From an uncultured Pseudomonadota bacterium (lineage in GTDB: Bacteria; Pseudomonadota; Alphaproteobacteria; RF32; CAG-239): a DNA stretch of 64,000 bases. The position numbers and the translations under genes were made by a program. This document shows, piece by piece, positions 3,683-32,451 of this stretch. The notes under the pieces were generated by a model. That model did no database searches, had not been told where the DNA came from, and was given only the letters and a program-made list of their open reading frames with translations. The stretch lies in NCBI GenBank assembly GCA_949298065.1, contig CASFUZ010000001.1, positions 18,793 through 82,792 on the forward strand, written 5' to 3'. Position 1 is the stretch's first letter. Every line of letters begins with the position of its first letter.

Positions 3683-4120
3683 TTAATAAACAATCTCAGA
3701 AAAGTATTCATTATTAATATAGTTATCAATAGCGCGTTTTGCATAATCTGAAATATTATCAGGCAGTGCGTTGAGTGCAAACCAATGCAAATCAGAGCAT
3801 TTGTCAGGTTCGGTTATTTGTGGTTGACCGCTGAATTTTTTAGTAACCAAAACATATTCTATGGATTGCCAGTTCCAAGGCGTAATTCTGTGCATGGCAG
3901 AAACAATGTCTAAATCTGCTTCAGCAACATTTAAGGTCGTTTCTTCCATAATCTCGCGGCGTGCAGCTTGTTTGACCGTTTCGCCGTCTTCCATACAACC
4001 GCCGGGCAGAGAATATTTTTCGCTGTCAAACTTGTTTTTGCGCAAGGTCATAAGAATTTCGTTTTTTTCATTAAGGATAATGTTTAAAACCCCGCCGATG
4101 AGTTTGAAACGCTCGCTCAT
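3683..4120 (-). CDS. NUDIX hydrolase
   Basis: Nudix box GGCMEDGETVKQAARREIMEETTL. It overlaps the upstream HD gene by 4 nt. Confidence 0.8.
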   Translation of the reverse strand: MSERFKLIGGVLNIILNEKNEILMTLRKNKFDSEKYSLPGGCMEDGETVKQAARREIMEETTLNVAEADLDIVSAMHRITPWNWQSIEYVLVTKKFSGQPQITEPDKCSDLHWFALNALPDNISDYAKRAIDNYINNEYFSEIVY

Positions 4121-4743
4121 TTTTCCTCCTTAATGCCTAAAACCTCATAAATATCTTTACCGCATTTAGCATCAAAATATGCTTTGAGCTCATATAGGCG
4201 TTTAATAATTGGAGCAATTTTTTCCGGCAAAATATGATATCTTTTACTGATACTATCCATTCTATACTCAATACTGCAGGTTTTGCCCATATCATTCATC
4301 ACATCAGCCAGCTGGATAAGCCTGTCATAGTCATCATATTCAATATTGGCTAAATATCTCTTGGCCTCTAAGAGTTGCTCTTTGTTTTGCGGATAAGTGT
4401 TGATGTCAAAATCTTTATTATAAAAACAATGCGTAACCGAGATTTTTGCAATCTCCGGCAGATTTTTTTCCATCAGATAATGATAACCGATAATCCCGTG
4501 AAAAGTGTTGCCTCTGGGTTCATCCTCAATTCTGCCGGCATCATGCAAAAGACCAAAAATATAGGCTTTATCAGTGTCCAAATCAGAACAATTTGCCGCA
4601 ATTGTTTCGGCAATACGTGCCACAGCAGCACAATGCGCCCGAAAAGTTTCCTCCATATCTCCTTCAAAAGGAAGCTTGCTGGCGTTCCTTTGGGCGACAA
4701 CTTCTTCAAATAAGTCTTGTGCTTGTTTTCTGGTTAAGTCCAT
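4117..4743 (-). CDS. HD-domain phosphohydrolase
   Basis: H...HD metal-binding signature (RAHCAAVARIAE...GLLHDAGR). About 208 aa and coupled on both sides by overlap or 1-nt spacing. Confidence 0.65.
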   Translation of the reverse strand: MDLTRKQAQDLFEEVVAQRNASKLPFEGDMEETFRAHCAAVARIAETIAANCSDLDTDKAYIFGLLHDAGRIEDEPRGNTFHGIIGYHYLMEKNLPEIAKISVTHCFYNKDFDINTYPQNKEQLLEAKRYLANIEYDDYDRLIQLADVMNDMGKTCSIEYRMDSISKRYHILPEKIAPIIKRLYELKAYFDAKCGKDIYEVLGIKEEK

Positions 4744-4744
4744 T

Positions 4745-5740
4745 TTACTTTCCTGCCTTGTTTAAGACATAATCCACGCGCTCTTCGGGAGAAAGTTTCT
4801 TAGGATAATACTTATCAATTTTTTTCAAAATTTGCGCCAAACCTTTGCCGTTGGCAATCTGAATTGCCAAACCGGGGCGAGCATTCAGTTCAAGCATCAT
4901 CGGCCCTCTAAATTCATCAAGGACGATATCTGCACCCAAATATCCCAAGCCAGTCATTTCATAACCCTTGGCGGCAATGAGCAAATGCTCGCGCCAGAAG
5001 GGAACTTCCAAAGTAGAGAGGTCAGCATTTGTATCCGGATGAAATTCTATCGGCATATTCCACATAACGCCTTTAAGGCTTTTTCCGGTCTTAATATCCA
5101 AGCCAACCCCGACAGCACCTTGGTGTAGGTTAGCACGCCCGCCTGATGCTTTGGTGGAAAGGCGCATCATAGACATAGCCGGATAACCTTTATAAACAAT
5201 AACACGCACATCCGGCACACCCTGATAGCTATATTCCGAAAAAATCGGGCTAAAATGCACCAATTCCTCAATCAAAGCCACATCATATTGTCCGCCCAAG
5301 CTGTATAATCCGCTCAAGATATTTGAGATGTGTTGGTAAACTTCATTAAAGGTCAAGAGCCTGCCCGAGGTTGTTTCAAATTCGGTTGGTGTATAACGTT
5401 TGATAACCAAAACACCTTTGCCGCCGCTGCCATGTGCCGGCTTAACCACAAATTCTTTGAAACCCTTAACAATCTCTAACAGGTTTTTAACCTCATTCTG
5501 CACGGAAACCACGCCGATAAGGTGAGGGGTAGTAATACCGACTTTCTGTGCCAAAAACTTGGTCTGAACCTTGTCATCAACCAAAGGATAAAGGCGGCGA
5601 TTGTTGTATTTTGAAATCACATTAAAATTACGCCTATTCATACCGAGCACACCGGCTTTCCTGAGCTCAGACGGAGAGGCAAAATTTTTCAGCCAGCCGA
5701 AACCAAACATCTCACTATCCTTTCTTAACCAAGGGTGCAA
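4745..5740 (-). CDS. RimK-family ATP-grasp alpha-L-glutamate ligase-like protein
   Basis: ATP-grasp fold motifs (VVKPAHGSGGKGV, ELNARPG). The start is more likely the ATG at 5710 (MFGFGW..., preceded by an AAGAAAGGATAG RBS) than 5740, which overlaps the upstream gene. Confidence 0.8.
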   Translation of the reverse strand: MHPWLRKDSEMFGFGWLKNFASPSELRKAGVLGMNRRNFNVISKYNNRRLYPLVDDKVQTKFLAQKVGITTPHLIGVVSVQNEVKNLLEIVKGFKEFVVKPAHGSGGKGVLVIKRYTPTEFETTSGRLLTFNEVYQHISNILSGLYSLGGQYDVALIEELVHFSPIFSEYSYQGVPDVRVIVYKGYPAMSMMRLSTKASGGRANLHQGAVGVGLDIKTGKSLKGVMWNMPIEFHPDTNADLSTLEVPFWREHLLIAAKGYEMTGLGYLGADIVLDEFRGPMMLELNARPGLAIQIANGKGLAQILKKIDKYYPKKLSPEERVDYVLNKAGK

Positions 5741-7250
5741 AACGCTTGAGCTCGGTCAGTCTGTATCCCGTATAAGTACCTAACAGCATAACAATGAACA
5801 AGATAACCAGATTAAGCTCGTTGAATGCGAACATAATATGGCGGATATACTCGTTACAAATGACGAAATAGGTAATAATGGCAACCAAAATGCTGAAAAC
5901 AATTTCTTTGGTCGCGTTCATAGCACCGTCTTCTTCCCAAGTAATTGAGGCACGCTCAATAATCCATGCCGTAATAATAATCGGGAAAAATACGGCGGAA
6001 GCAGCAATGTCAAGTTTGAGCTGATAACCGCAGATTGTTAAGGCCTGCATCATCAAAATCACCACAATCACAACCGCCGAGATTCTCGGAACCAACAGCA
6101 AGTTCAGTTTAGAGAGCAGGGCTCGGATAAGCAGTCCGATAAAGATGATGAAAGAAAAGCAAATTAAGCCGGACCAAAAACCGGTCTTAACCAAAGCCAT
6201 AGAAATCAGCATCGGCGTAAAAGTTCCCATTGTCTGCACGCCGATAACATTGCGCATTAAGACAATAATCAAAATAGCCAGAGGGAAAATCATCAGCCAT
6301 TTAAGTGTATTTTGCTCAGCCAAAGGCAAGCTATAGATAGAAAAATCAAACCAAGTGGTTTGGTTAGCAAGCTTTGCTCTATGGCGTGCCAAATTAAAGG
6401 AAGAGCTGATAGATTTTAGTACAGAATATTTAACAACGGAATCTTCTCCGCCCTCAACATCAAGCAAAGAATCTCCGCCGCGCTGAATAACCACAAAGTC
6501 TTCAGGCAAGCCTTTTTTGCCGGTCTTGAGGCTATAAAGTGTCCATCTTCCTTCCGTATAAGCCTCAATCATCAAATCCGGCGTAAAGGATTTTTTGTTT
6601 TCTTCCAGCTTAATACCGCGTACCAAACGAGTCGGCACATTTTTAAGAGCTAGGAGGTTCATTGTGGCTTCCGCAATGTCTTTTTGCTTCTTTTTCATCG
6701 GCAAAAAGGCCAAAACCGTAGCATCAGGCGGTGTTTGGTTTAGAAGGCGAATAACCTGTTGTGGCAGATTACCCGGTTGTTTAGCGGAAAGTTCCAAAAG
6801 CTCTTTGGCAACAGCCATTTTTTGCTCGTCAAAAATCGGTTTTTCAGGGTTGGACGGAACGGGAGCGGGAATTTTGCCTCGGCCATCTTCATTATCAAAC
6901 AACAAAATCCGATAATAAAGCTGCTGTTTTTCTTCTCTTGGAGCTGATGACAAAACAATGCGGTTTTCCTTTGTGTCTTTGCTAACCTTATAACCTTCAG
7001 CCACAACATCTTCATCAAGAATCTTATATTCTTTACTGACTTTTGGGGTAGTTAAGGAAACTTTGATTGGCTCTCCCGTTGGCATAAAGTTGATTTGAGC
7101 CTCTATCGTCCACACGGTTGTAGATTTTTTAGGAGCCCAATCAAAACCCCAATAGCGAATTTTATAATAAATGCTATATGCGGCAAAACAAACGGACAAA
7201 ATCAGACCGATTGTCAAAATAAAGCGAACGGAAGTAAATTTTTTAAGCAT
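5715..7250 (-). CDS. Inactive-transglutaminase domain fused to a 7-TM module (7TM_transglut / Transglut_i_TM-type)
   Basis: One N-terminal TM, then a roughly 300-aa extracytoplasmic domain, then seven C-terminal hydrophobic helices. It sits between the retropepsin-like and RimK-like genes, as in the described conserved neighbourhood. Confidence 0.65.
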   Translation of the reverse strand: MLKKFTSVRFILTIGLILSVCFAAYSIYYKIRYWGFDWAPKKSTTVWTIEAQINFMPTGEPIKVSLTTPKVSKEYKILDEDVVAEGYKVSKDTKENRIVLSSAPREEKQQLYYRILLFDNEDGRGKIPAPVPSNPEKPIFDEQKMAVAKELLELSAKQPGNLPQQVIRLLNQTPPDATVLAFLPMKKKQKDIAEATMNLLALKNVPTRLVRGIKLEENKKSFTPDLMIEAYTEGRWTLYSLKTGKKGLPEDFVVIQRGGDSLLDVEGGEDSVVKYSVLKSISSSFNLARHRAKLANQTTWFDFSIYSLPLAEQNTLKWLMIFPLAILIIVLMRNVIGVQTMGTFTPMLISMALVKTGFWSGLICFSFIIFIGLLIRALLSKLNLLLVPRISAVVIVVILMMQALTICGYQLKLDIAASAVFFPIIITAWIIERASITWEEDGAMNATKEIVFSILVAIITYFVICNEYIRHIMFAFNELNLVILFIVMLLGTYTGYRLTELKRFAPLVKKG

Positions 7251-7275
7251 AGAGGCACCTTAAGAATGCAAGGGT

Positions 7276-7815
7276 TTAGTGAAGTGTGTTTTCCAAAGCC
7301 GTATCCACAATGGCACGTCCGGTCAAAATGTTACGACCGATGAGGACTTGATATTCAAATTTTTCACGGTTAGCAAGAGAAAACTCTGCAGAGATAATTT
7401 CGTTGCCAAGCTTAACGTCCAACATAACAATTTGACGTTTTTCATGCTTGTTAATACGAACAATGCTTGTTTGGCGAACCAATTCTTTTTCAAAATGATG
7501 AGTTTCTCCCGTATCTTTATTAACAATAGTAAAGGAAACCCATTTTTCGCCGTCGCGCTCAAAGGTTTTGAGGTTTGAAACATCAATAGAAGAAGTTTCG
7601 GCACCTGTATCAATACGAGCAGCCAAAGGTGCCTTCATCGGCAGAACATAGACAGGTTCAACCGCTCCGATAACACCTAAAGAATGTCTCATCTTATGAT
7701 GTTTCGGTGTCTCAATTTCTGCCGGAGGAACAATCGCCGGAGTAATATTCGGAGTTTTACAAGCGCTACACATGGCAACAACAATTCCTAAAAACAAAAA
7801 ACTTATATTTTTCAT
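7276..7815 (-). CDS. Retropepsin-like aspartic protease of the RimK-associated family (annotated in databases as 'ATP-dependent zinc protease', PF05618-like), probable lipoprotein
   Basis: Signal peptide with Cys (VVAMCSAC). Catalytic motif ARIDTGAETSSID (D-T-G-A). First gene of the cluster. Confidence 0.65.
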   Translation of the reverse strand: MKNISFLFLGIVVAMCSACKTPNITPAIVPPAEIETPKHHKMRHSLGVIGAVEPVYVLPMKAPLAARIDTGAETSSIDVSNLKTFERDGEKWVSFTIVNKDTGETHHFEKELVRQTSIVRINKHEKRQIVMLDVKLGNEIISAEFSLANREKFEYQVLIGRNILTGRAIVDTALENTLH

Positions 7816-7982: not shown

Positions 7983-8900
7983 ATGGCAACAATAACACCA
8001 CAAGAGCGAACAAAAAATCTGAAAAATCGTATTAAGAAGAAAAAAATTGCTTTGCTTAAAAGTGTTAAGCGAATAACGATGTATGTTGCTTTGCAGTGTG
8101 CCGCAACCATTCCCCAACCTGGAAACACTTTGCTTGGCACCCAGGCTGCCAATTCGGCCAACAACACCAAAGAAAATATAACAAAGGAAATTGCGTCTAA
8201 AACAGAGCTAAAAGAAGCTTTAAAGGAACGTAAAGACTGGCTTATTAATGATAATTTTTTTTCAAAAATTACTGAGTATCAAAATATTCTAAAGTCAAAA
8301 TCACCTACAGAAAAGAAAGATTATATTAAGAAGAATTTTTTTGACACGGTATATCCTGTTGGGGGTATTCCCAAAGGTTCAAATTATTGCATTGCAGCGG
8401 CAATGCGTTGCCTTTATGATGTGAACAAAGAAACGGGAGATTTGGAAAAATTTATGCCCGATGGCAATACAAGAGAAGGACATAGTATGGTATCTTGCCC
8501 GATGTTTAAGGAATATATAAAGAAGAATTTTCCGGATTGCATTATTGAAAAACCAAGCAAAGAAGACATAAGTTCCTTGGAAAATGGTGATTTTATACTC
8601 TCTCGCTCCAACAGCCGCAACACAACCAGCGGACTGCATTTTACAACGGTTTATGATGCGCAAAATGGTTTGGAAGCGAGTTTTAATACGGATGGCATCA
8701 GAGCATTCAAACCCGAAAAAATTGCGTGTATTGTGAAGTTTGGAAAAATCATAGACATTTGCTTACAAGAGAAGGTGAAGCAAATGGATGCGCATTCTGC
8801 CTTGCAGGCGATGAAAAGCGGCGTTAAAGATAACAAAGATTATCAGCTCACCGCTATGAACTTTCGCCAAACTTCACAAAAATCATCAGACAGAAGCTAG
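7983..8900 (+). CDS. Hypothetical protein; possible papain-like or C39-like cysteine peptidase fold (weak)
   Basis: No signal peptide and a basic N-terminus. Cys within NYCIAAAMRCLYD and a downstream His (GHSMVSCPMF) resemble a Cys/His peptidase arrangement. I see no recognisable homology beyond that. Confidence 0.4.
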   Translation: MATITPQERTKNLKNRIKKKKIALLKSVKRITMYVALQCAATIPQPGNTLLGTQAANSANNTKENITKEIASKTELKEALKERKDWLINDNFFSKITEYQNILKSKSPTEKKDYIKKNFFDTVYPVGGIPKGSNYCIAAAMRCLYDVNKETGDLEKFMPDGNTREGHSMVSCPMFKEYIKKNFPDCIIEKPSKEDISSLENGDFILSRSNSRNTTSGLHFTTVYDAQNGLEASFNTDGIRAFKPEKIACIVKFGKIIDICLQEKVKQMDAHSALQAMKSGVKDNKDYQLTAMNFRQTSQKSSDRS

Positions 8901-11009: not shown

Positions 11010-14000
11010 TTAGAATTTATATCCCATACCGGCACTTAGGGCATAACCATCACTCTCTTCCAAGAACTTGTTGGCTTCAAAGTAGAAGTCAAAGCCCTCA
11101 TGCTTATAATCCATACGGAAGGTGAGGATACCGCGGTCGCGTTCGGCATCATAGCTATCCATCTGGTAGCTGCCGACCATTCCGGCAATTCTGGCTCTGG
11201 CGGCCTGATAGGGGTTGTTGAACTCATGATACCATGTTCCGCCGGCGCGCAAGGTCAAATCATTTTCATCTTTAATGCTGAAGGACTTGCGGGCATAAAG
11301 TCCCAAACCGCCTTCAACCGAGAGATTATTAGCCGACTTAACTTCCAAACCGTTCTTTTCTTTAGTGCTGTCTTGATACATACCCAAGACATTAAACTCG
11401 GCAGTCGGTTCCAAAACAACGGCACCCAAGTCAAATTCCTTACGAACTTCATTAGTGATACCATAGTAGTAGTTCTTGGTGTCAGCCTTATTGTCAAATC
11501 CGTCAGCTCTGCGGTTATATTCACCCCAACCGATACCCAAGCGCGGCATAGCAATAGCCTTAAGTCCTTCTGTTGTATAAATCAACGGGGTTAAGACTTG
11601 AGCAATAATTTCATCACGTTCTGAACCATTGTCATAATCACTCTCATATCTCGTGAAGCTTACACCTAAGCCATAACGGAAGTTGCTGTTATATTTGCGG
11701 TCAAACATAGCATAAGCACTCAAAGCTTCGTCTTCATAACCACTCAGCATATCAACATCATTTTGCTCACGATAATCATAGACAAAGTCAAACATCGCCC
11801 GAACATCTTGTGCACTTTGGTTAGCAAACAAAGTTTGGCTCATATGGCGGTTAACAGCCTTCACAATATCCATATTTTGCTTAGCAAAGCTCGGAACAAT
11901 ATCCAGCCCCATCTGACCGGCAACCGCAGCCGTGAAAGAGCTGGCGTCGGGAGCCGATTTCAGAATACTGTACATATCCATGTTGGTTCCCAACGTATAA
12001 TTGTTGGTCAGGAAGTTTGCCACACTGCTATTGTCAACGACATCGGAAAATTCCTTCATTATCATCACAACGTCCTGATTACCGTCTTCATTTGTAACCA
12101 GATATGCGTCAAAGAGGTAAGAACCCGAGCTCAGCTTGAGCCCCGCGTCGGTACCGATAAACGAATCCTCATTAACATAGGTAGTTTTGTTGCCTTCCAT
12201 AACAATATCGGCAGAAGCTGTTACAGGACCTGAATGCTCAGGAGCAATGTAAGAACCTTTGGGCGCAAGCACGAATGTCCCGCTGTTGGCCGCAGACATA
12301 AGGTTAAAGTTAAGCGCGCTTGTCGAGATGACTTGTCCGCTATTAACAAACGTAGCCCCATTTGCAACCTGAATAAAATTACCGCAGCCGGCAGCCGTAC
12401 AACCAGTATTGTCTGTATCAGGGTTAGTGCTTGAAGAAGCCCCCGGATATTCTGTTGAAATAGAAGCCCCGTTCAAGATAATATTGCCATAGTTGGTAAT
12501 AGAACTTCCACTACCTGTTGCATACATACCGACAGCATTAGTTCCATTTACATTGATGGTAGCGCCGGCAGCATTAACCAGAGAAGCCCCGCTAGAAGCA
12601 TACATACCATAAGAAGTTCCGCTACTACTTCCCGTAACCGTAATAGTTCCAGAGTTTGTCGCCGTTCCGCTACCTGTTACAAACATACCGGTAGCATTTG
12701 CAGTTGTACCATTTACACTAATGCTAGATTCAGCAGAGTTAACCAGAGAAGCCCCGTTAGAACCATACATACCATAGGAAGTTCTGCTATCTTTTCCCGT
12801 AACCGTAATAGTTCCAGAGTTTGTCGCCGTTCCGCTACCATTCAAAACTATACCATAGGCTTGCCCATCAGAAACAGAGATATTATTTCTGTTTAGGACA
12901 GTTCCGCCTGTACTGTACATACCATATGAAATTCCGTTACCCGAACCAGTAATGGTTAAAGCTCCATCATTTGTCAAACCACCACCATACAAGCCATAGG
13001 ATGTTCCGTTACCGGTAAGATTAAGGTTAATATTGCCACCATTTGTGAGTATGCCGCCATTATTCATATTGATACCATATCCTTGTGCGGCACTAACAAT
13101 AATGTCAGACATATTACTAACATAATTACCATTACTGAAAATACCATAGGAATAACCGGCACCAGAACCTGTAACACTAATTTTGCCACCGGTAGTATTA
13201 ATAACTCCGCCATACATACCATAAGAAGTTCCGTTCCCCATTCCCGTAACCGTAATGTTTCCGCTATTTGTAAGAGTCCCGTCACCTGTTGCATACATAC
13301 CAGTAGCATTAGCCGCATTTACACTGATGGTACCCCCGGCAGAGTTAACCAGAGAAGCCCCATTTGAACCATACATACCATAAGAAGTTCCGCTGTCTGT
13401 TCCGGTAAGCGTAATTCTTTCTTTGTTTGTGGCAGTTCCACTACCGTTCAATGCAATACCATATCCTTGCTCTGCTGAAACATCGATTTCTGAAGAGTTT
13501 TGAACCGTTCCTCCTGTACTATATATACCATAGGCAGTTCCATTTGCTGTTCCGCTGGCAGTTCCGGTAACTTTTATTACACCGCCATTAGTCAAACTAC
13601 CGCCATACAAACCATAGGATGTCCCGCTTCCCGTAAGATTGAGCGTAATATCTCCACTATTTGTAAGAGTTCCGCTACCATTCATGTTAATACCATAACC
13701 TTGCGCGGCATTAACAATAATGTCAGACTGATTGCTAACATTACCTCCGGTACCAAAAATACCATAAGAAGCTCCCGTGCCAGTACCTGTAACACTAATT
13801 TGGCCATCAGTTGTATTAATAACGCCGCCATACATACCATAAGCAGAAAGTCCTCTAACTGTTATATTTCCTCTATTATTTTGTTGTACAGCAGAAGAAG
13901 AGTAGATACCATAGGCATTACTTTTATCAGAAGAGACATCTATCGTATTAGTGTTGGAAACAGTAATTCCACTGTTTGAATTTGCATAAATACCATAGAC

Positions 14001-17000
14001 ATTATCTGAAGATGTTGAGCCTTTATAATTAACATCAATAGAGCCGGTGTTGGTAATATTTCCGCCGCCCGTTGTGTTTGTAGCATAAATACCTGCAGCA
14101 TTATTTTGAGCGGAGTTAACCGTAAGAGTGCCGGCATTTGTAATTGTACTGTCTGTTGCATAAATAGCAGCAGAAGAGGCTTGCCCGACAGTTATATTGC
14201 TATTGTTCTTGAGCGTACTGTTTGTTGTTCCATACATTGCGTAAGAGCCGGAATAAGAATCACCGATTGATATAGCTTTATTATTTGTTGCCGTGCCACC
14301 GTTAGAAGCAAATAAAGCATAAGCATTATTTGCATTAATTTGAATGGTTCCGTTGTTTGTAATTTCGCTAGCCCCACTGACAGACATAGCTTTTCCCGAA
14401 TTAGACAAGATAATACTTCCGCCGCTGGCATTTTCAGCGGTTCCGCCACTGCCGGAAATAGACAAACCAATACTATTCAAAGCATTAAGCGTAATGGAAC
14501 CGTTGTTTACAAGAGAACCTACTTTAGTGAACAAAGCCGTTGCTCCGCTTTGCAGAACACTAATATTACCAGAATTGGTGATATTTGCGTTTGCGCCATA
14601 CATAGCATAACTTCCTGTTGCGCCATTATTAAGATTTATAGTTCCTGTGTTGGTCAAAGTAGCAGTAACACCGTCAGCAACTTTCATGGCATAAGAATCT
14701 ACGGTATCAACAGTAAGCTTGCCGGAATTTTGTGCAGTACCGCTACCTGTTACATTCATAATTATAGAGTCGGCAAAACTCAAATCAATATCAGCCTGGT
14801 TAATTATTGTACCATTCCGAGTTTGCATCAACACACCAGAGGCCGACATATTAATAACACCGCTAGAGCTGTTGGTAATCTTGCCTTGTTCAGCGTATAA
14901 TGCAATAGAACCGCTGGCGCCTCCGTCTACACTAATCGTACCGCTGTTTGTAAAAGAAGCATTTTGGTTATCAAGCAACACACCGTAAGAATCATCCGAA
15001 TACACGGAAATTGTACCGCTGTTGCTGGATGCCGTGCTTGCTGCCGTACCATCTATCAAAATACCAACATTATTAGTTCCGGAAGCGGCGGTAGATGTAC
15101 CGACATTAATTGTTTTGGTATTCGTTGCATTTCCACCGTTTGCAACATGCATAGCGTTAACATTGCTTGCCGACACGGCGGTATTCAAAGTTCCGTTATT
15201 GGTAATATTCCCCCCCATAGCCTTCATAATATCAGTATCACTCTGATTTAAATTAACAGTACCTGTTGAGGCATTAATAGCATTTCCGCTATTACTTAAG
15301 AAGGCGAGGGAGCCTGTTGCGTTATCGCTAATAGTAATTATACCAATATTTGTAACAGATCCGCCATTACTTTGCAAAGCAACAGAATCTGCAGAATTTA
15401 CATTAATATCCCCCTGATTAGAAGCATTACCTCCGGTAACATTAATACCAACAGAATTAGGAGCTGCAGAATTGTCTGTTCCAATATTAATATCTCCCAG
15501 ATTATAGGCATTTCCACCGGAAACATTCATACCGGTCAGATTACTTCCGCTCAAATTAATAACACCAGAAGCAACATTGTTTAAAGTTCCGCCGGATGTT
15601 CCAATTCCCATTGCGGACATATTGCTACCATTGATATTGATTGTACCATTATTATTGGCCGAGCCACCGTTTGTATAAACGCCAAAGATTTGATTTCCGG
15701 CGTTTGGATTACCAGAGAGAGAAATTGTTGCATTTAAGGCATTAGTAACACTTCCGGAAGAAGTGGAATATAATGCATATAAAGAACCGTTTAGACCGGA
15801 ATTTATAGTAGCAGAAATATTATTTTTGTTTTGAGCATTTGTAACACTTCCTGTTGCATACATGCCATAACCGCCACCGTTTAAGTATATATTATCATTG
15901 TTCGTCAGAGAGCTTCCCCCTGAACCATACATACCATAAGCCCCGGATGCATTAACATTAATCAAGGCATTATTTGTTAAACTTCCGGAGCCGCTTGCAG
16001 ACATACCCTGAGCTCCGGCAGCATTAACGGCAATATAAGTTTTTGTATCTTCAGTATCTGTTCCGTCTTCATTACCGTGAATGGCAGAACCACCACCTTG
16101 TACAGAAAGTCCAACTGAATTTTCACCATCAAGAGTAATATTTCCTGTGTTAAGTAATTTTCCTACAGAAGTAAACATAGCCGTTGAAGAGCTCTGCAAT
16201 ACATCAATGGTAGCAGTATTGGTTATATTGGCACTTTGACCGTACATAGCAAAGGAGTTGCTGCCATCGCCCTCTAAAGTAAACTCACCATTATTAACCA
16301 AGGTAGCTGCAAAACCATCATCAGCCTTGAATCCGTAAGAATTGCTGCCCAGAACATTAATAACGCCGTTTTGTTGGTTTGTAACGGTTCCGGTACCTTG
16401 AATTAAGAAAGCGGTAGAATTATTGCCGTTAACACTAAGAGTTCCGGAATTATCGGCATTATTTGTACCGGAAACGACAATACCTGTAGCATTATCACCT
16501 AAGGCAATAGTTCCTTCATTATAAGTTTGCCCATTAATGGCCTGCATCAATATACCTTCGCCAAACATATTGATGGTACCTTTATTGTATATATCGCCGT
16601 TTTGGGCATATAAAGCAACGGAACCGTCAGCACCTTCCATAATAGATATCGTACCGTTATTAACTAAATCACCGGTATTGTTAATTAGTTTAATTGCATA
16701 AGAATCTTGCGTATAGACATTAATATTACCTTCATTAACAACGGATCCGCCATCCACAAACATACCAATATTATTAGATCCGGTCGCACCATTTCCGGTT
16801 CCCACATTAATTGTTGCATCTGCGGCATTTGTAGCCGTACCTGTTCCTTGGATGTGCATAGCATTAACATTACTCAAATCGCTGTTAATATTAAGCGAAC
16901 CATAATTGGTCAGAGAACCTCCAAGAGATTTCATTAAATCTGTATTGGATTGATTTGAATTAATAATACCGCTTACACCATTAATAGCAGTTCCGCTGTT

Positions 17001-20000
17001 GCTCAAAATAGCATAAGAATTTGTCGCTGTTTCTGAAACATTGATTGTACCATTATTGGTAATAGTACCGGTTTCGGCATCACTCTGCAAACCGACAGAA
17101 TCATTGGAGTTAACATTTATAACACCCTGATTAAAGACCGCACCACCTGTTGTCTGCATACCAATAGAGTCGGATGAAGCCGTAAGTGTTCCTTCATCAT
17201 CAATCGTACCTATATTAATTGTTCCGTTGTTTTTAGCCGTAGCTCCGGCAGAGGTCATACCAATATTATTACTTCCCGTAAGATTAATAACAGCATTTTG
17301 CATATTGGTAAGAGAGCCGGTTGTATCAGATCCAGCATAAGCCATACCGGTAGAATTGCTACCATTAATAAAGATATTACCGAGGTTGGTTCCTTCGCCT
17401 TGGTTAACATAAATACCGAAAGCCTGAGTAAGCATAGAAGCCGTAGAAGCGTTACTATTGATGTAGATATTAGCGTCAGCCGTATTATTTGCAATAGCAC
17501 CGCCATCAGCATAAATGCCATAAGAAATAGAATTATTATCATTATCAGGAACATCAATAGTAATATCGCCTGAATTAACCATTAAGGCATCAGCTCCGTT
17601 TCCATACAAACCTGTACCACCGGCATTCATTAAAATAGTACCGTTATCATTTTTAATAGTTCCGGCGGTAGTATACATTCCCCACCCATACATATTATCA
17701 AAGGTAATTGTACCAAGATTTGTCGCTGTACCACCGGCAATAGAAATACCATATCCTTGTTGAGAATATGAAGGAGAGTTAACGCTACCGGTGAGAGTAA
17801 TGTTATTATTATTAGTAATATTTGCATTAACAGCGGAAGCAGAAGCCTTAATACCGTAGTTATTTTCTCCGGAATAAGTACTGTTTATATTGATAGTTGC
17901 GTTATTATTCGCAATGGCATCTTGTCCAGTCAGTTCAATACCGGTAACATTGCGACCGGACAAGTCAATGATATTATTATTATCTACTAACAAACCTGCT
18001 TTAATACCTGTAGCACCGTTTCCGTTTGTAATTGTGATGGTTCCGTTATTGGTAATTTTACCAGCTTGAGCCACAATACCCGTACTAGCAGCCGTATCAT
18101 TATCATTGATAATAATAGAGGCATCAGTAGCATTTAAAACGTCACCATTTGAAGAAGAAATACCTGTGCCGCCTTGTTCCAAAGTAATGTTACCTAAGTT
18201 CTGTACATATCCTGACGTTGTAGCGATACCCGTACCTCTCTTATGAAAAGTAATACTTCCATCGGCTGTGTTTGTTATATTTGCGGAATCACTAAATATA
18301 CCATAAGAGTCAACACTTGTTGAGCCATCTGTTGAAACCAACACATTCATATCAATAGTACCGTTGTTTATCACATTACCGGCCTGAGCCTGAATGCCAT
18401 AGGATGCTTCTGTAGGTACCCTTGAGGTATTTGAAACAAAAATTCCGGCACCATTTGTACCGTTATTAGTAGCTGTTCCATCTTCAATAAAGATACCTTG
18501 AGCCCCATCAGCATTGTAAATCGTAATAGTACCGTTGTTAATGGCTTGAGCATTGGTCAGATTTTGTTTAATTGCTGCTCCGGATTCGCCGGTAGAAGTA
18601 TCACCGCTACCATCAGCACTGTCTGAACCAGAAGTTTGACTATCTGTTGTCGGATCACCAGATTTCAAAACCATACCTGCGCCACTATTTTGTAAGGTAA
18701 TATTTGCGCCTTCGCTGTTAGTTAGGATACCGGTATTTGTGCGCATACCGGTACTATCATTTTGCATTGTGATGGTGCCGTTATTGGTTACTTTACCACC
18801 ATTAAAGGAAGCCATACCGAAACCATCGGTACTGGTAACCTCAATTATTCCTGTTTCTGCATTTGTCAGAGTAGGAGCTAAAGCATCAATCTCAGAGTTG
18901 TTCCCTTGGCCGCGAACGCTAAGCATACCATAATTACCCATACCACCAACAACGGAAATAATATTTTCATTGCTGATAGTGCCACCATGAACAGCTTGCA
19001 TGCCAGCACCGGCATTATCCACCCCGGTAGACAACAGTAAACTGATATTTCCTTCATTAAGTGCGGTAGTTTTTGCATCGGCACGCATACCTACAATACC
19101 GCCATTACCCATAAGTAAAGTATTTTCATCAGGGGCATAAGTTCCCGTACCGGAAAGAGTGTAATTAAGAGAGATGTTTCCATTTAAGGTATTTGTAAGG
19201 TACAAGCTGCTTGCCCGCCGAATTAATTTTGTGCCATCTAAGAAGTCTTGATCCAGATACCCGCCCATTCCGATGAGAGAGGTTTTAATTGCGGCAGAAT
19301 CGCTTTGTGCATTAAGTGTTATATTTGCATTATTTGAAGCAGTTGCTGCAGGAGTAAGGCTCGGGTAAGGAACTTCATTGATTGTTCTAACTTCCATACC
19401 TATAATCGTACCGGCATTAGCTGTTGTCGTTGTATCACCGCTGGTTCCAGAACCACCTGTAGAACCGCTGACATCAATGGTATTACCGGTAATATTCCCA
19501 AAATTTAGGATAGAAGAATAAGTATCGGCATACATACCGATAATAGTATCCTGATTATTAAAACCTTTAAATTGTAGATTTATGTCACCGCTTTGGTTTG
19601 TTGCGACAGAATGGTTACCGGCAATCATACCGAAAGCCCCATTTTGTGCTAAAATTTTAAGAGTACCGTAATTTGTTGCCTGGCTATAATCATCAGCAGC
19701 CATTCCGACAGAAGCCTCACCGATTGTAATCATCGGAGCATTAGAGCCGGCATCTTCAGAACCATTGATAACAGAAGAATTATTGCGCGCCTTCATTCCG
19801 ACTTTAAGATAGACCGCATAATCCAAAATGTTTCCGTTAAGGTCAATAAGATTGACCAATTGCTGAAGTTCACTTCCCCCATTGGCATTAGGGACAACGA
19901 CTGAAGAATTGTTGCTGACGGTAAAGTCATTTGTTTGAGCCCCATCAGCCTGATTCGTAATAGTTTTGTTATTATCAGCAAAATAAGTAATAGGTTTATA

Positions 20001-26545: not shown

Positions 26546-27526
26546 TTAATCCAAATATTCTGACTTTACACTTCCGTCCGCATCTACATAGCTGTGTTTT
26601 CTCCTTTTGGTATATTCATCATAGCGCATACCGCTATAGTTATAGAGAGATTTATCCGCACCGGCAGCAAGCAAAATGTCAACAGCCGCCTGATTCCCGA
26701 AGGCATAAAATAGCGGTGTGTTTCCTTGTGCGTCCCGAATATTTACATCAGCACCTTTAGAAATCAAAAACTTCAATATCTCTAAATCTACGGGACGCGT
26801 TCCGACTAAGGCAGAAAAGATAACCGGTTTGCCGTCAGAATCTTTGGCATTCACATCAGCACCATTCTCAACCAACAAAGTCACGGTTTTCAATACATAG
26901 TCGTCCGCGCTTTGCGAAGCAATCTTGTAGACCTGATTAATCTTATATTTCAAAAGATCCAAATCTTCCTGCGTTACGGCATCACACGACTTAGCAAAAT
27001 TAGCAATACAATAATTGTTATCCATACCGGATTTTATTGCATCCACAAGAACATTATAAAAATTTTTTTCAAAACCATCAATTTTAAACGGAATAAGCAT
27101 AGCGGATTCTAATGGTAAATTATGCAATTTACTTCCGCTTTCTTGATTGGGGTTAGCACCGGCTTCCAATATAATCTTAACTTTTTCCAAGGCGTTATCA
27201 GGAGAAATTTGCGACGTAAGCGCTCCGAAAGCATAAGAAACGGCATCAATAGCGTACAATAATGTATTTTTCCCGTTATAAGTAAGATTAACATCAAAAC
27301 CATCTTTAATAAGGTTGCGCAAATCATCAGGCGAGCCTTCAAGCATAATTTTTTTGAATTTTTCATAAGTTTCTTTGCTCATTTCATTTTGTGAGGCAGG
27401 CGCAACAACGCTATTCTCCGCACTCAGGCTCAGTGAGAGCGGTGTAAGACAAAATATTCCCGACAAAGCCAAAGCAACAAAAGACAATTTTTTCATAAAA
27501 ACTCTCCTCAAATTATTTAAAGACAA
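26546..27526 (-). CDS. Secreted ankyrin-repeat protein
   Basis: Signal peptide (MKKLSFVALALSGIFCLTPLSLSLSA). Several ankyrin repeats (GANPNQES..., NGADVNAKDSDGKPVIFSAL, KGADVNIRDAQGNTPLFYAF, LLAAGADKSL). Its start overlaps the upstream HD gene by 14 nt. Confidence 0.75.
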   Translation of the reverse strand: MSLNNLRRVFMKKLSFVALALSGIFCLTPLSLSLSAENSVVAPASQNEMSKETYEKFKKIMLEGSPDDLRNLIKDGFDVNLTYNGKNTLLYAIDAVSYAFGALTSQISPDNALEKVKIILEAGANPNQESGSKLHNLPLESAMLIPFKIDGFEKNFYNVLVDAIKSGMDNNYCIANFAKSCDAVTQEDLDLLKYKINQVYKIASQSADDYVLKTVTLLVENGADVNAKDSDGKPVIFSALVGTRPVDLEILKFLISKGADVNIRDAQGNTPLFYAFGNQAAVDILLAAGADKSLYNYSGMRYDEYTKRRKHSYVDADGSVKSEYLD

Positions 27527-28139
27527 CTTTAAGTAATTCTTTATATTCTTTATTTATTTTGTTGTAATTTCTTAATTTATTGTTTAATAATTCTCCGATT
27601 GTTTCATAATACCAATGCTGGTCTTCTTTGCCGGAGTTATAATCTTGCCACATACTTTCGCCGCAGTCTTGCAAGGTTCTGTAAAAAGACCGCAGGTTAG
27701 AAAGCTTGTCGGCGGCAATCAAAAGCATACCGTTTTTGCTCTTTGTGCGCTTAAGATAGCCGATTGTTTCCAGCTTGCGCTGTTTCCATGGCATAGATTT
27801 ATCTTTTTCGGTGTCAGCCAATACAAGTTTGATAATCTCTTTGGCTTTGGAAGGAGCAAACAAACATTCCATATCCGCAATTGTCTTGTTGGTGTCTTCC
27901 AAAACATCGTGGAGTAGGCCGGCAATAACCAAGTTTTCGCAAGCTTTGTGCTCCATCAAAATTCCGGCGACTTCAAATAAGTGAGAAACATAGGGAATAT
28001 CAGAGCTTTTGCGCGTTTGTCCGCGGTGCGCCTCCATCACAAACTCTGCCGCCACAATCATCGGAGCAGTCAGCTCATTCTGATGTTTTGCCAAAAACTC
28101 CTGAAACAACTCAACCGCCCACTGATGATTATATCGCAT
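27513..28139 (-). CDS. Small alarmone hydrolase: stand-alone SpoT/RelA-type HD domain ((p)ppGpp pyrophosphohydrolase-like, Mesh1-like)
   Basis: AHRGQTRKSSDIPYVSHLFEVAGIL...ENLVIAGLLHDVLEDT matches the RelA/SpoT HD hydrolase signature. It is only 208 aa and has no synthetase, TGS or ACT domains. Confidence 0.65.
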   Translation of the reverse strand: MRYNHQWAVELFQEFLAKHQNELTAPMIVAAEFVMEAHRGQTRKSSDIPYVSHLFEVAGILMEHKACENLVIAGLLHDVLEDTNKTIADMECLFAPSKAKEIIKLVLADTEKDKSMPWKQRKLETIGYLKRTKSKNGMLLIAADKLSNLRSFYRTLQDCGESMWQDYNSGKEDQHWYYETIGELLNNKLRNYNKINKEYKELLKVVFK

Positions 28140-28152
28140 TTTTTCTCTCCAA

Positions 28153-29220
28153 TCAGTCGTTAATCACAATCTGCCAAGATTTTCCTTGAGGTTCATATTT
28201 ATCAAATAACAAGTCGGCCATAAACTTTGTAACCACGCGCTCGTTATATTCGGTATGAATTTTTTGCCAACCTTTGCGCGCAACTTCCATTCGCTTTTGC
28301 GGATTTTCTTTAAAATACCGAAGCTTATCAAAAAATTCTTCTTTAGTATCATAAAAAGCGGCTTCATCTTCCTCAAAGAGCGTAGAAAATCCGTTTCTTC
28401 TGTCAATAAAAGCCAATTGTCCGTCCGCCATAATATGCGCCAACCTGTCAGAGCTATACAAATATATATCGTTAACACGGCTCAAGTTCAAGCCCATAGC
28501 CGCTTTGCCCAAAGCCTCAATATATTCGTAGCCGTTGAGGTTAGGGTTGCCTTTAAGTCCGGCCAAAAGCCATTTCAGATTCGGAACTTTTGCATTCGCT
28601 TCATCAATAACTTGCTCAATTTCCTCATCTTTTCCGCAAAATTGGCGCTTGCCCGTATTTGTGCAAAGCATAATATCATAGGGCAGGCTTTCTTTCTCAA
28701 AGCAACGGTTTGTTTCAATAGAATTATCAGCCATATTAGGAAGATAAGCCACTTTATTGCGCGGGAGCTTAAATTGCCGCAGAAGCTTTTCATCTCCGGT
28801 TGAAATCATCAAAACATCAACCGCATCCAAATATTTCTTTAAGGCGGCAATATTGCGCTCAGCCAACCCCGGAACAATCCAATCACAACTCCATTGCATA
28901 ATGCGAAGGTGAGGGAAAATCTCTTTGATTTTTAAGATGGTGTCTGCTTCAATTAAATCTGCATGCCCGATAAGCAAAGCATCTGGTTTAACGGTTTTGC
29001 AATAGTTGATGAGGTGCTGGTTGAGTTTTCTCTTGCCCCAAAAATTCATATGCCCAAAACCAAACATCCGACACAAATCTCTGTCCGGATAGTTCAAAAC
29101 CGCATAGCCGTTACGAATCAAGCCATTAGAAATTTTAATCGGAAAACCGTTTTGAAAACAACCCTTTAGGCGCATAAGATTAAAGTTAGATATATGGACA
29201 ATATTCTTCATAACCGACAC
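28153..29220 (-). CDS. CgeB-like glycosyltransferase (GT1-related)
   Basis: 355 aa. Overall resemblance to the CgeB/DUF3880 glycosyltransferase family. It is tightly coupled (1 nt) to the upstream hypothetical gene. Confidence 0.5.
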   Translation of the reverse strand: MSVMKNIVHISNFNLMRLKGCFQNGFPIKISNGLIRNGYAVLNYPDRDLCRMFGFGHMNFWGKRKLNQHLINYCKTVKPDALLIGHADLIEADTILKIKEIFPHLRIMQWSCDWIVPGLAERNIAALKKYLDAVDVLMISTGDEKLLRQFKLPRNKVAYLPNMADNSIETNRCFEKESLPYDIMLCTNTGKRQFCGKDEEIEQVIDEANAKVPNLKWLLAGLKGNPNLNGYEYIEALGKAAMGLNLSRVNDIYLYSSDRLAHIMADGQLAFIDRRNGFSTLFEEDEAAFYDTKEEFFDKLRYFKENPQKRMEVARKGWQKIHTEYNERVVTKFMADLLFDKYEPQGKSWQIVIND

Positions 29221-29916
29221 TCATTGTTTAAGAGATAACAAAAATTTAGCCAAGATTTTAAATAATGGACGCAAAAAACGCGGAGCTTGCCCAACGGCAG
29301 AGAACATAACCGCAATTCTGTGAATATTGCAGTCTATGGCCACCCCCATACGATGATGTCCTTGATTAAGCGTGTCTTGCACGCCCAAAATACGGCAAAG
29401 CATAATATCTATCGGAAAACGGTCATCATATCCGTTGGTTAACATACTTTCCTTAAGTTTTGCATACATATCTTTTCTTTGGGCTTTGGCTATTTTGTGC
29501 TTAGAATTGGTAAATTTATAAGCATTTTCTTGAGTCCTGAAATTTCGCTCAATCTTTTTTTCCCTAATTTCAAAGGGATCAATATGATAAACCCGAGAGG
29601 AATAGAACTTATGTTTGTATCTCAACACGCGGATAAGCGGTGATAATAAGTCAAAACGGCTGATTTTGGGTACAAAAGCAATCCGAACCGGGATAAAAGC
29701 TTGTTTTTGCTCAATAGCTTTTTTCACCGCTTCGCGCCCGCGCAGGAGCGTGTCCGGTGTTCCGCTTGATTTATCAATCCAAATCGGATTATGTCCGATG
29801 AGTAAGATAACTTCATCTGAAACATTAACATCATCTTTTATATTGCTGTCTTTTAATGAAATTAAATCATTCGGGTCAAGATGATATATTTCAGATGAAT
29901 AGCAGATACAAGACAT
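29221..29916 (-). CDS. Hypothetical protein; possible sulfotransferase/P-loop-like (IWIDKSSGTPDTLL), weak
   Basis: I placed the start at MSCICYSSE (29916), preceded by an AAAGGAGC RBS. It is the first gene of a four-gene minus-strand operon. Confidence 0.45.
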   Translation of the reverse strand: MSCICYSSEIYHLDPNDLISLKDSNIKDDVNVSDEVILLIGHNPIWIDKSSGTPDTLLRGREAVKKAIEQKQAFIPVRIAFVPKISRFDLLSPLIRVLRYKHKFYSSRVYHIDPFEIREKKIERNFRTQENAYKFTNSKHKIAKAQRKDMYAKLKESMLTNGYDDRFPIDIMLCRILGVQDTLNQGHHRMGVAIDCNIHRIAVMFSAVGQAPRFLRPLFKILAKFLLSLKQ

Positions 29917-30100
29917 AAAAAAGCTCCTTTTCCTACACAAAGTACAATAAATAAGCCTTTGACGCAAACAAAATCTGCGCACATTCCCACGCTTTTTAAA
30001 CAAAGTCGTTTTGTTACGTTTTTGTTACAAAATCAGTTGTTATGCGCTTTTGTTTATGCTATAATAAAACTATAATATAATTATGGAACGGAGGCCTAAT

Positions 30101-32046: not shown

Positions 32047-32427
32047 TTATTGCTGAGCTTCAGCTTCCTGATTAGCAACAGATGCTTTGATTTGCTCGGC
32101 GAGCTTGCGCATCATATTCTGCAACGCAGCCATATATTCGTCTTCGCTGAGCAAACCATCATTGTCCGTATCAAAGCCGTTGAAAGCATTTTCAGCTTTG
32201 ATTCTGGCCTCTTGAGTTGAATAATCAATAAATTCGTTCAAAGAGATTGCGCCGTCGCTGTTTGCATCCACATTCGCAAATTCAGCCTTAACGGCAACTT
32301 TCAACTTTTCCTGAATTTCCTCGGCAGAAGGTTGTGTTTGCTGTTCTTCTGAAGCTTCTTGCGCATAAGTCAGGTTCACCGAGAACAATAAAGCCAAAGT
32401 CGCAGACAATAACATCAATTTTTTCAT
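32047..32427 (-). CDS. Secreted EF-hand calcium-binding protein
   Basis: Signal peptide, and two canonical EF-hand loops: DANSDGAISLNEF and DTDNDGLLSEDEY. Confidence 0.7.
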   Translation of the reverse strand: MKKLMLLSATLALLFSVNLTYAQEASEEQQTQPSAEEIQEKLKVAVKAEFANVDANSDGAISLNEFIDYSTQEARIKAENAFNGFDTDNDGLLSEDEYMAALQNMMRKLAEQIKASVANQEAEAQQ

Positions 32428-32451
32428 AATTTGCTCCTTTATAATAAGGGG

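Follow-up and report, generated by a model that had tools for sequence, protein, structure and literature searches.

A RelH-type small alarmone hydrolase gene at the tail of a putative glycan operon in an uncultured alphaproteobacterium

Small alarmone hydrolases (SAHs), the stand-alone hydrolases among the RelA/SpoT homologues (RSHs), are as a rule scattered in their distribution and prone to horizontal gene transfer (PMC3153485), and have been proposed to be under mainly transcriptional control (PMC3153485, PMC9293644). The closest described relatives of the SAH reported here are RelH of Corynebacterium glutamicum (RelH_Cg; PDB 7QOC, 7QOD) and of Leptospira levettii (RelH_Ll; 7QOE) and Lmo0812 of Listeria (4YF1), which are proteins of ~190–210 amino acids with a single HD_4 domain; hydrolysis of ppGpp and pppGpp has been shown in vitro for both RelH enzymes (PMC9293644). 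Mesh1, Mesh1-L and XccSAH, which also cleave NADPH, share the HD fold and catalytic residues and are likewise orphans with no partner synthetase (PMC9765508), and stand-alone RSH hydrolase domains are further found in the SAH antitoxins of toxSAS modules and in the immunity proteins Aph1 and PaSAH. The gene in question lies in a block of four minus-strand genes at positions 26546–29916 of a 64,000-nucleotide stretch of DNA (the window; G+C ~41%) from an uncultured alphaproteobacterium (assembly GCA_949298065.1, contig CASFUZ010000001.1, positions 18,793 to 82,792).

With moderate confidence, the block is interpreted as a genuine RelH-type SAH gene placed at the tail of an older operon of two glycan-related genes, with a gene for an ankyrin-repeat protein added later; the link between the SAH and its neighbours would be one of position. 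The older operon would have consisted of a gene for a ParB/Srx-like protein (g1) and one for a GT4-like glycosyltransferase (GT) acting on envelope glycans. The SAH gene would have been inserted at the 3' end of this operon in a single lineage of uncultured Alphaproteobacteria, probably associated with the gut, and the gene for a Sec-exported, fast-evolving ankyrin protein would have been added behind it in a narrower sub-lineage. A single mRNA from the g1 promoter would carry all four genes, each translated from its own Shine-Dalgarno site, and the SAH would serve as an orphan accessory hydrolase that trims alarmone pools alongside any long RSH of the genome. Its tie to the glycan and ankyrin genes would then consist in shared transcription and not in a biochemical pathway dedicated to them. 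The findings leave the picture of the stringent response as it is; they record an intact orphan SAH of the RelH type in uncultured, host-associated Alphaproteobacteria, a group of which little is known.

The hydrolase and its closest relatives

The SAH is a single-domain protein of 208 amino acids with HD_4/HD matches alone and no synthetase, TGS or ACT domains. Residues 30–152 matched Pfam PF13328 (HD_4) at 45.1 bits (cutoff 27.2), and the match to NCBIfam TIGR00691 (spoT_relA) covered the hydrolase part only. When the PDB was searched by sequence, nearly end-to-end alignments were obtained with 7qoe (RelH_Ll, 3e-28), 4yf1 (4e-26) and 7qoc (RelH_Cg, 2.5e-25). A profile built from an alignment of 27 homologues, reaching down to 31% identity, placed the same three structures first (4yf1, 2e-54; 7qoe, 5e-52; 7qoc, 8e-51), followed by Mesh1 (3e-33, not over the full length), the hydrolase domains of long RSHs (5e-30), PaSAH (1.5e-17) and Aph1 (1.6e-12). 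The 208-residue protein had been recognized as a stand-alone RelA/SpoT HD hydrolase in a first-pass annotation made from the DNA sequence, and that identification is upheld by the above-threshold HD_4 match, the first rank of RelH in the profile search and the lack of a synthetase domain.

The active-site residues whose roles have been described in RelH_Cg (PMC9293644), namely R24, H34, H58, D59, E62, D63, D122 and N126, correspond in the PDB-search alignment to R43, H53, H77, D78, E81, D82, D144 and N148 of the SAH. These include the Mn2+-binding set (H53, H77-D78 and D144) and the catalytic pair (E81-D82), together with R43 and N148. The catalytic and Mn-binding residues, which the first-pass annotation had left to be verified by alignment, are accordingly all present, and all eight are invariant in the 27-sequence alignment. 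The SAH is identical to RelH and Lmo0812 in its Mn-binding (H, HD, D) and catalytic (R, ED, N) residues, and aligns with them through the C-terminal helices typical of dimeric SAHs. It differs in overall identity, which is only ~35–40%, in a clade-specific N-terminal extension of ~27 residues (M.YNHQ.A..LF..F), and in its setting at the tail of a glycosyltransferase operon in an alphaproteobacterial metagenome-assembled genome (MAG); its activity is predicted from sequence. By these alignments gene 3 is a convincing stand-alone RelH-type SAH with an intact active site, and an ordinary member of its type.

The predicted activity is that of a Mn2+-dependent 3'-pyrophosphohydrolase converting (p)ppGpp to GTP/GDP. 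The base-contacting triplet of the SAH, R43-K44-S45, resembles the R43-R44-S45 of guanine-binding TtRel and not the D24-K25-A26 of Aph1 (PMC10083569). An Aph1-type, (p)ppApp-specific hydrolase, recognized by signature residues such as D24 and R119 and by a compact fold of eight helices, was considered and rejected: Arg43 occupies the position of D24, and the match to the Aph1 structure (7smg, 1.6e-12) involved the N-terminal half alone. Resistance to ppApp toxins and turnover of NADPH, both described as roles of orphan SAHs (PMC9765508, PMC10083569), are possible secondary functions that the sequence favours less.

The SAH is called an orphan because it has no synthetase or toxin gene as a neighbour. 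No second open reading frame (ORF) with an HD_4 domain was present in the window, and no RelA_SpoT synthetase domain was detected among window ORFs of at least 150 amino acids. The comparison set, made up of the window and 18 fetched relative loci (identified by L numbers below; 300 kb in all), contained no synthetase motif on either strand. A toxSAS-SAH toxin-antitoxin module was therefore rejected, the neighbours of the SAH being a glycosyltransferase and an ankyrin protein; this sets the gene apart from toxSAS antitoxins, which have an adjacent small alarmone synthetase or toxin gene.

Orphan status of this kind would also fit an immunity enzyme. Its role would be to guard the cell, within a dense community of the gut, against toxins that synthesise (p)ppApp or (p)ppGpp and are delivered by competitors or phages. 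PaSAH, XccSAH and Aph1 protect against Tas1/Apk toxins and provide a precedent for orphan SAHs acting against interbacterial killing (PMC9765508, PMC10083569), no cognate synthetase is found near the SAH, and the relatives derive from metagenome samples. We nevertheless judge this role improbable, given that the SAH is far nearer to RelH (~1e-51 to 1e-54) than to PaSAH or Aph1, that it carries Arg at the position of the adenine-specifying Asp24 of Aph1, and that no toxin, type VI secretion system or prophage genes were seen in the window.

Gene order, spacing and conservation in relatives

The block comprises four co-directional, closely spaced ORFs, preceded by a divergent intergenic region:

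29917–30082, no strand assigned: divergent intergenic region between g1 and the 176-amino-acid-protein/AnmK genes; inferred promoter region of the block
29221–29916, minus strand: gene 1 (g1), 231 amino acids, first gene of the operon
28153–29211, minus strand: gene 2 (GT), GT-B-fold, GT4-like glycosyltransferase of the CgeB-like PF13524 family, 352 amino acids
27513–28139, minus strand: gene 3 (SAH), stand-alone RSH HD hydrolase of predicted RelH type, 208 amino acids
26546–27496, minus strand: gene 4, Sec-exported (periplasmic or secreted) ankyrin-repeat protein, 316 amino acids, last and apparently youngest gene of the block

Good Shine-Dalgarno sites precede three of the ATG starts: AAAGGAG 7 nt upstream of the g1 ATG at 29916, GGAGAG 5 nt before the ATG of the SAH gene, and GAGGAG (27509–27504) 7 nt upstream of the ankyrin ATG at 27496. 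The GT gene could also start at a GTG at 29220, immediately next to the stop codon of g1. Spacers measure 9 nt between g1 and GT (0 nt if the GTG at 29220 is used), 13 nt between the GT stop and the SAH ATG, and 16 nt between SAH and ankyrin gene. The operon described in the first-pass annotation is thus present at its place with all four ORFs; the gaps given for it were 1, about 14 and -14 nt. The negative value came from a TTG at 27526 taken as the ankyrin start, a candidate that we rejected: it lacks a Shine-Dalgarno site, and the ATG at 27496 is favoured by GAGGAG and by the orthologues, in whose gene calls the ankyrin start falls 16–28 nt past the SAH stop in every case. The coupling of SAH and ankyrin translation through a start/stop overlap, as proposed earlier, rested on this wrong start codon and is not upheld; the spacing remains operon-like.

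The four genes are most likely transcribed as one mRNA from a promoter upstream of g1, as judged from the short spacers and the lack of a visible terminator; a scan for consensus promoters and terminators found no minus-strand terminator inside the block, with counts no better than in shuffled sequence. Upstream of the block, 29917–30082 is the only stretch of non-coding DNA longer than 16 nt, and it would act as the promoter region. If the SAH depends on this glycan-operon promoter, its dose would follow the expression of envelope genes and not stress, and such regulation would be both simple and testable.

The window matches contigs of uncultured alphaproteobacterial MAGs (CALXVR010000003.1, CALXYB010000003.1 and CASEZG010000006.1). 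All four genes occur together in eight of the relative loci (L001, L004–L008, L017 and L018), representing six distinct lineages with SAH identities of 63–99.5%, so the four genes are conserved together in relatives, a point that the first-pass annotation had left to be checked. In these loci the whole neighbourhood is syntenic (AnmK, the 176-amino-acid protein, Fe-ADH_2, HAD and CNNM), and the four-gene block was seen only in this narrow clade. Loci L009 and L011 (SAH identity 51% and 47%) have g1, GT and SAH followed directly by a convergent gene, with no ankyrin gene. Locus L014 has the corresponding syntenic site, flanked by AnmK and Fe-ADH_2, with only g1 and GT in it and no SAH. Beyond the clade, GT homologues of 45–46% identity lie in unrelated polysaccharide clusters (L015 and L016), and g1 homologues stand alone or beside GT10/GT2 genes (L010, L012, L013 and L015, the last at 7993–8601); L013, too, is a glycan cluster. 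An HD gene was absent from all six GT or g1 contexts that were sampled beyond the clade (L010, L012, L013, L014, L015 and L016).

This pattern is better described as stepwise accretion at the tail of an operon than as a conserved functional module, a reading to which we give somewhat better than even credence, with the order of gains taken from the levels of identity. The series from g1-GT, through the addition of the SAH, to the addition of the ankyrin gene would offer a clean natural case for studying the acquisition and expression of accessory alarmone hydrolases. The junction downstream of GT also varies in another respect: a gene for an Hsp70-like, YegD-type protein is present there in the window, L001, L002, L004, L007, L009 and L018 and absent from the same site in L005, L006, L008, L011 and L014, and the junction is therefore regarded as a hotspot of gene gain and loss. 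In the window this gene (25241–26545, plus strand) is convergent with the ankyrin gene with 0 nt between the stop codons, and in L018 the two overlap by 8 nt.

Several points weigh against this interpretation. The genes missing from L014, L009 and L011 could, formally, have been lost there. The GT-SAH junction is tight in all SAH-bearing relatives (a 19-nt overlap in L009 and gaps of 2–15 nt elsewhere) and the g1-GT-SAH trio persists down to an SAH identity of 47%, so that selection for co-expression with the glycan genes may have been at work. The SAH-ankyrin pair, once acquired, was kept in every locus that covers the downstream DNA. Finally, the specificity of the SAH is a prediction, and cleavage of (p)ppApp or NADPH is also conceivable for RelH-like enzymes.

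The tight or overlapping GT-SAH spacing, and the retention of the trio at SAH identities of 47–51%, are also what would be expected of a dedicated coupling, in which the SAH is made with g1 and GT to lower alarmones while surface glycan is being built, or acts on a (pyro)phosphorylated nucleotide of the pathway other than an alarmone. The neighbourhood has an envelope-related character (AnmK, MurE, and the glycerol-1-phosphate-dehydrogenase-like and HAD genes), and some SAHs are promiscuous, as in the cleavage of NADPH by XccSAH and Mesh1 (PMC9765508). Such coupling is still considered unlikely: g1 and GT occur in L014 without the SAH at the same site, the six contexts sampled outside the clade are devoid of HD genes, all SAH-bearing loci share the synteny of the whole neighbourhood and may have conserved the trio by simple inheritance, and the active site is of the canonical (p)ppGpp-hydrolase type. 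Distinctly doubtful is a recruitment of the SAH to the g1-GT operon for the sake of the glycan pathway itself, with alarmone clearance tied to glycan synthesis or with the SAH taking a 3'-(pyro)phosphate off a by-product of g1 that is a nucleotide or is related to nucleotide sugars; if true, this would be a role for a RelH-type hydrolase outside the stringent response. Under the accretion reading, we infer that a dedicated functional link between the SAH and its neighbours is absent. The first-pass annotation had seen in the joining of SAH, glycan and ankyrin genes either alarmone-linked control of envelope modification or an effector cassette; neither found comparative support, as the block comes apart in L009, L011 and L014, and the unusual combination is a lineage-specific arrangement with no evidence of joint function.

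A mobile element or recent horizontal transfer was also considered as the source of the block and rejected. No tRNA genes or mobility genes were found, nor flanking repeats other than the internal ankyrin repeat and a signal-peptide look-alike (see below), and the G+C content of the block, overall and at third codon positions, is within the range of the neighbouring genes. A loose precedent exists in the Rickettsiales amplified genetic element (RAGE), where hydrolase-only SpoT homologues and ankyrin genes of Alphaproteobacteria are both carried as accessory cargo (PMC10732058). The window differs from RAGE in having no integrase, transposase, tra genes, tRNA or repeats, in the single intact copy of the SAH at a stable, syntenic chromosomal site, and in the Sec signal peptide of its ankyrin protein.

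The site upstream of g1 is variable as well. A gene for a protein of 445–457 amino acids with no Pfam match lies between the 176-amino-acid-protein gene and g1 in L001 (4705–6048), L004 (4701–6044), L009 (4531–5868), L017 (2863–4236) and L018 (778–2118). It is missing from the window, where the site is taken up by the 166-nt intergenic region at 29917–30082.

The ankyrin protein, the glycosyltransferase and g1

Gene 4 had been described as an ankyrin-repeat protein with a signal peptide, and both features proved real. It matched Ank_2, Ank_4 and Ank at 1e-14 to 1e-15, and a Sec signal peptide with a signal peptidase I-type site (LSA|E) is kept in six orthologues; the protein is not considered a lipoprotein because the cysteine is not conserved. 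The gene is the fastest-evolving of the block, with an identity to L001 of 47.5% as against 75% for SAH and 78% for GT. A Dot/Icm type IV secretion system (T4SS) ankyrin effector was rejected as an identity for the protein, which scored 15–30 bits against model cutoffs of 500–1400 and has a conserved Sec signal peptide. A direct repeat of 35 nt (71% identical; 27464–27498 and 32395–32429) spans the start and signal-peptide codons in both the ankyrin gene and a gene for an exported EF-hand protein (32047–32427), and probably reflects no more than similar MKKL... leaders.

The SAH and the ankyrin protein could be imagined to act as a pair, either as a host-directed effector module or as an anti-phage system resembling PDC-M72, a PADLOC candidate composed of an ankyrin and an HD protein. 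The ankyrin protein did match PDC-M72A (9e-15) and the SAH PDC-M72B (0.0019), the pair is kept in every locus with an SAH identity of at least 63% that covers the downstream DNA, and the RAGE cargo mentioned above combines the same two kinds of gene (PMC10732058). The first match is generic, however, since a synthetic consensus ankyrin scored better on PDC-M72A (1e-24), and the second amounts to 16 bits and is limited to the HD motif. The two genes stand in the reverse of the A-B order of PDC-M72, the two proteins would reside in different compartments (the ankyrin protein is Sec-exported and the SAH has no signal peptide), and L009 and L011 carry the SAH with no ankyrin gene. Taken with the low scores against T4SS Ank-effector models and the lack of mobile-element genes, tRNA, flanking repeats and unusual base composition, this makes an effector or defence cassette highly improbable. 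Membership in PDC-M72 was rejected on the weak A match relative to the consensus-ankyrin control and the 16-bit B match; other SAHs gave no match to the system. No mention of PDC-M72 was found in the literature, a search of the literature, as far as its sources could be seen, returned no useful signal for an SAH within a glycosyltransferase operon, and PHROGs yielded generic phosphohydrolase and ankyrin families and nothing more specific.

Gene 2, proposed earlier as a CgeB-like glycosyltransferase, is a GT-B-fold, GT4-like enzyme of the CgeB-like PF13524 family: it matched PF13524 (Glyco_trans_1_2) at 2.3e-18, and its AlphaFold2 (AF2) model (mean confidence, pLDDT, 95.6) has the two Rossmann domains of the GT-B fold. 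No PDB entry was matched by sequence at E ≤1; its structural neighbours are the CgeB-like/GT4 retaining glycosyltransferases BshA, PimA and WlaC/PglH. It differs from CgeB-like glycosyltransferases in being paired with a putatively ParB/Srx-like partner and not with spore-coat genes. Among the 414 GT homologues found, protein P0253 (549 amino acids, on a 2.8-kb metagenome contig) joins a PilZ-domain N-terminal half to the C-terminal two-thirds of a GT homologue, and could be a real fusion responsive to cyclic di-GMP or a chimera of assembly.

The first gene of the operon, g1, gave no match to Pfam, NCBIfam or the PDB by sequence. Its 199 homologues belong to a small family, with 168 clusters at 50% identity among 1.84 billion representatives, for which there is no Pfam model. 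A KSSGT motif had earlier suggested a P-loop or sulfotransferase-like protein. In a 30-sequence alignment this motif falls in a variable, gapped stretch with insertions and deletions, where, in the PDTLL that comes next, only the Asp shows no variation; the invariant features of the family are DTLL.GR, P.R.AF and GHHRM (G186-H187-H188-R189-M190). No P-loop or sulfotransferase fold was present among the structural matches of the AF2 model (pLDDT 91.9). The P-loop NTPase/sulfotransferase assignment was rejected on these two grounds.

On weak but consistent evidence, g1 is probably a divergent nucleotide-binding protein of the ParB/Srx fold. Its GHHRM motif presumably corresponds to the DGxHR-like motif of that fold. 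Distant family members are fused to a phytase-like esterase (three proteins), an APH-type kinase (two proteins) or a putative rhamnosyltransferase, and unfused members adjoin GT10, GT2 or GT1 genes. From these fusions and the adjacency to glycosyltransferases it follows that g1 belongs with glycan or phospho-glycan chemistry, and the family may represent a new enzyme that modifies glycans or phospho-glycans. This unnamed, putatively ParB/Srx-like family is the less expected, and the most original, by-product of the analysis.

Other features of the window

Convergent with the block are genes for an Fe-ADH_2 protein (glycerol-1-phosphate-dehydrogenase-like) and an HAD phosphatase (23396–25217, plus strand), which are joined in L009 (9685–12476) by a cytidylyltransferase and a hexapeptide acyltransferase. 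With the L009 additions, these neighbours look like a pathway for activated polyol-phosphate decoration situated next to the glycan operon.

Three further regions of the window were noted. A cassette at 4117–7815 (minus strand) encodes an HD/HDOD protein (208 amino acids, not of RelA/SpoT type), a sugar-transfer-associated ATP-grasp protein, a fusion of seven transmembrane segments with an inactive transglutaminase, and a putative Zn protease. A single ORF at 11010–20594 (minus strand) encodes a giant protein of 3194 amino acids with no Pfam match at E ≤1e-3. Two large adjacent ORFs (679 and 1331 amino acids) at 51503–57649 (plus strand) showed sub-threshold, coiled-coil-like Pfam matches only.

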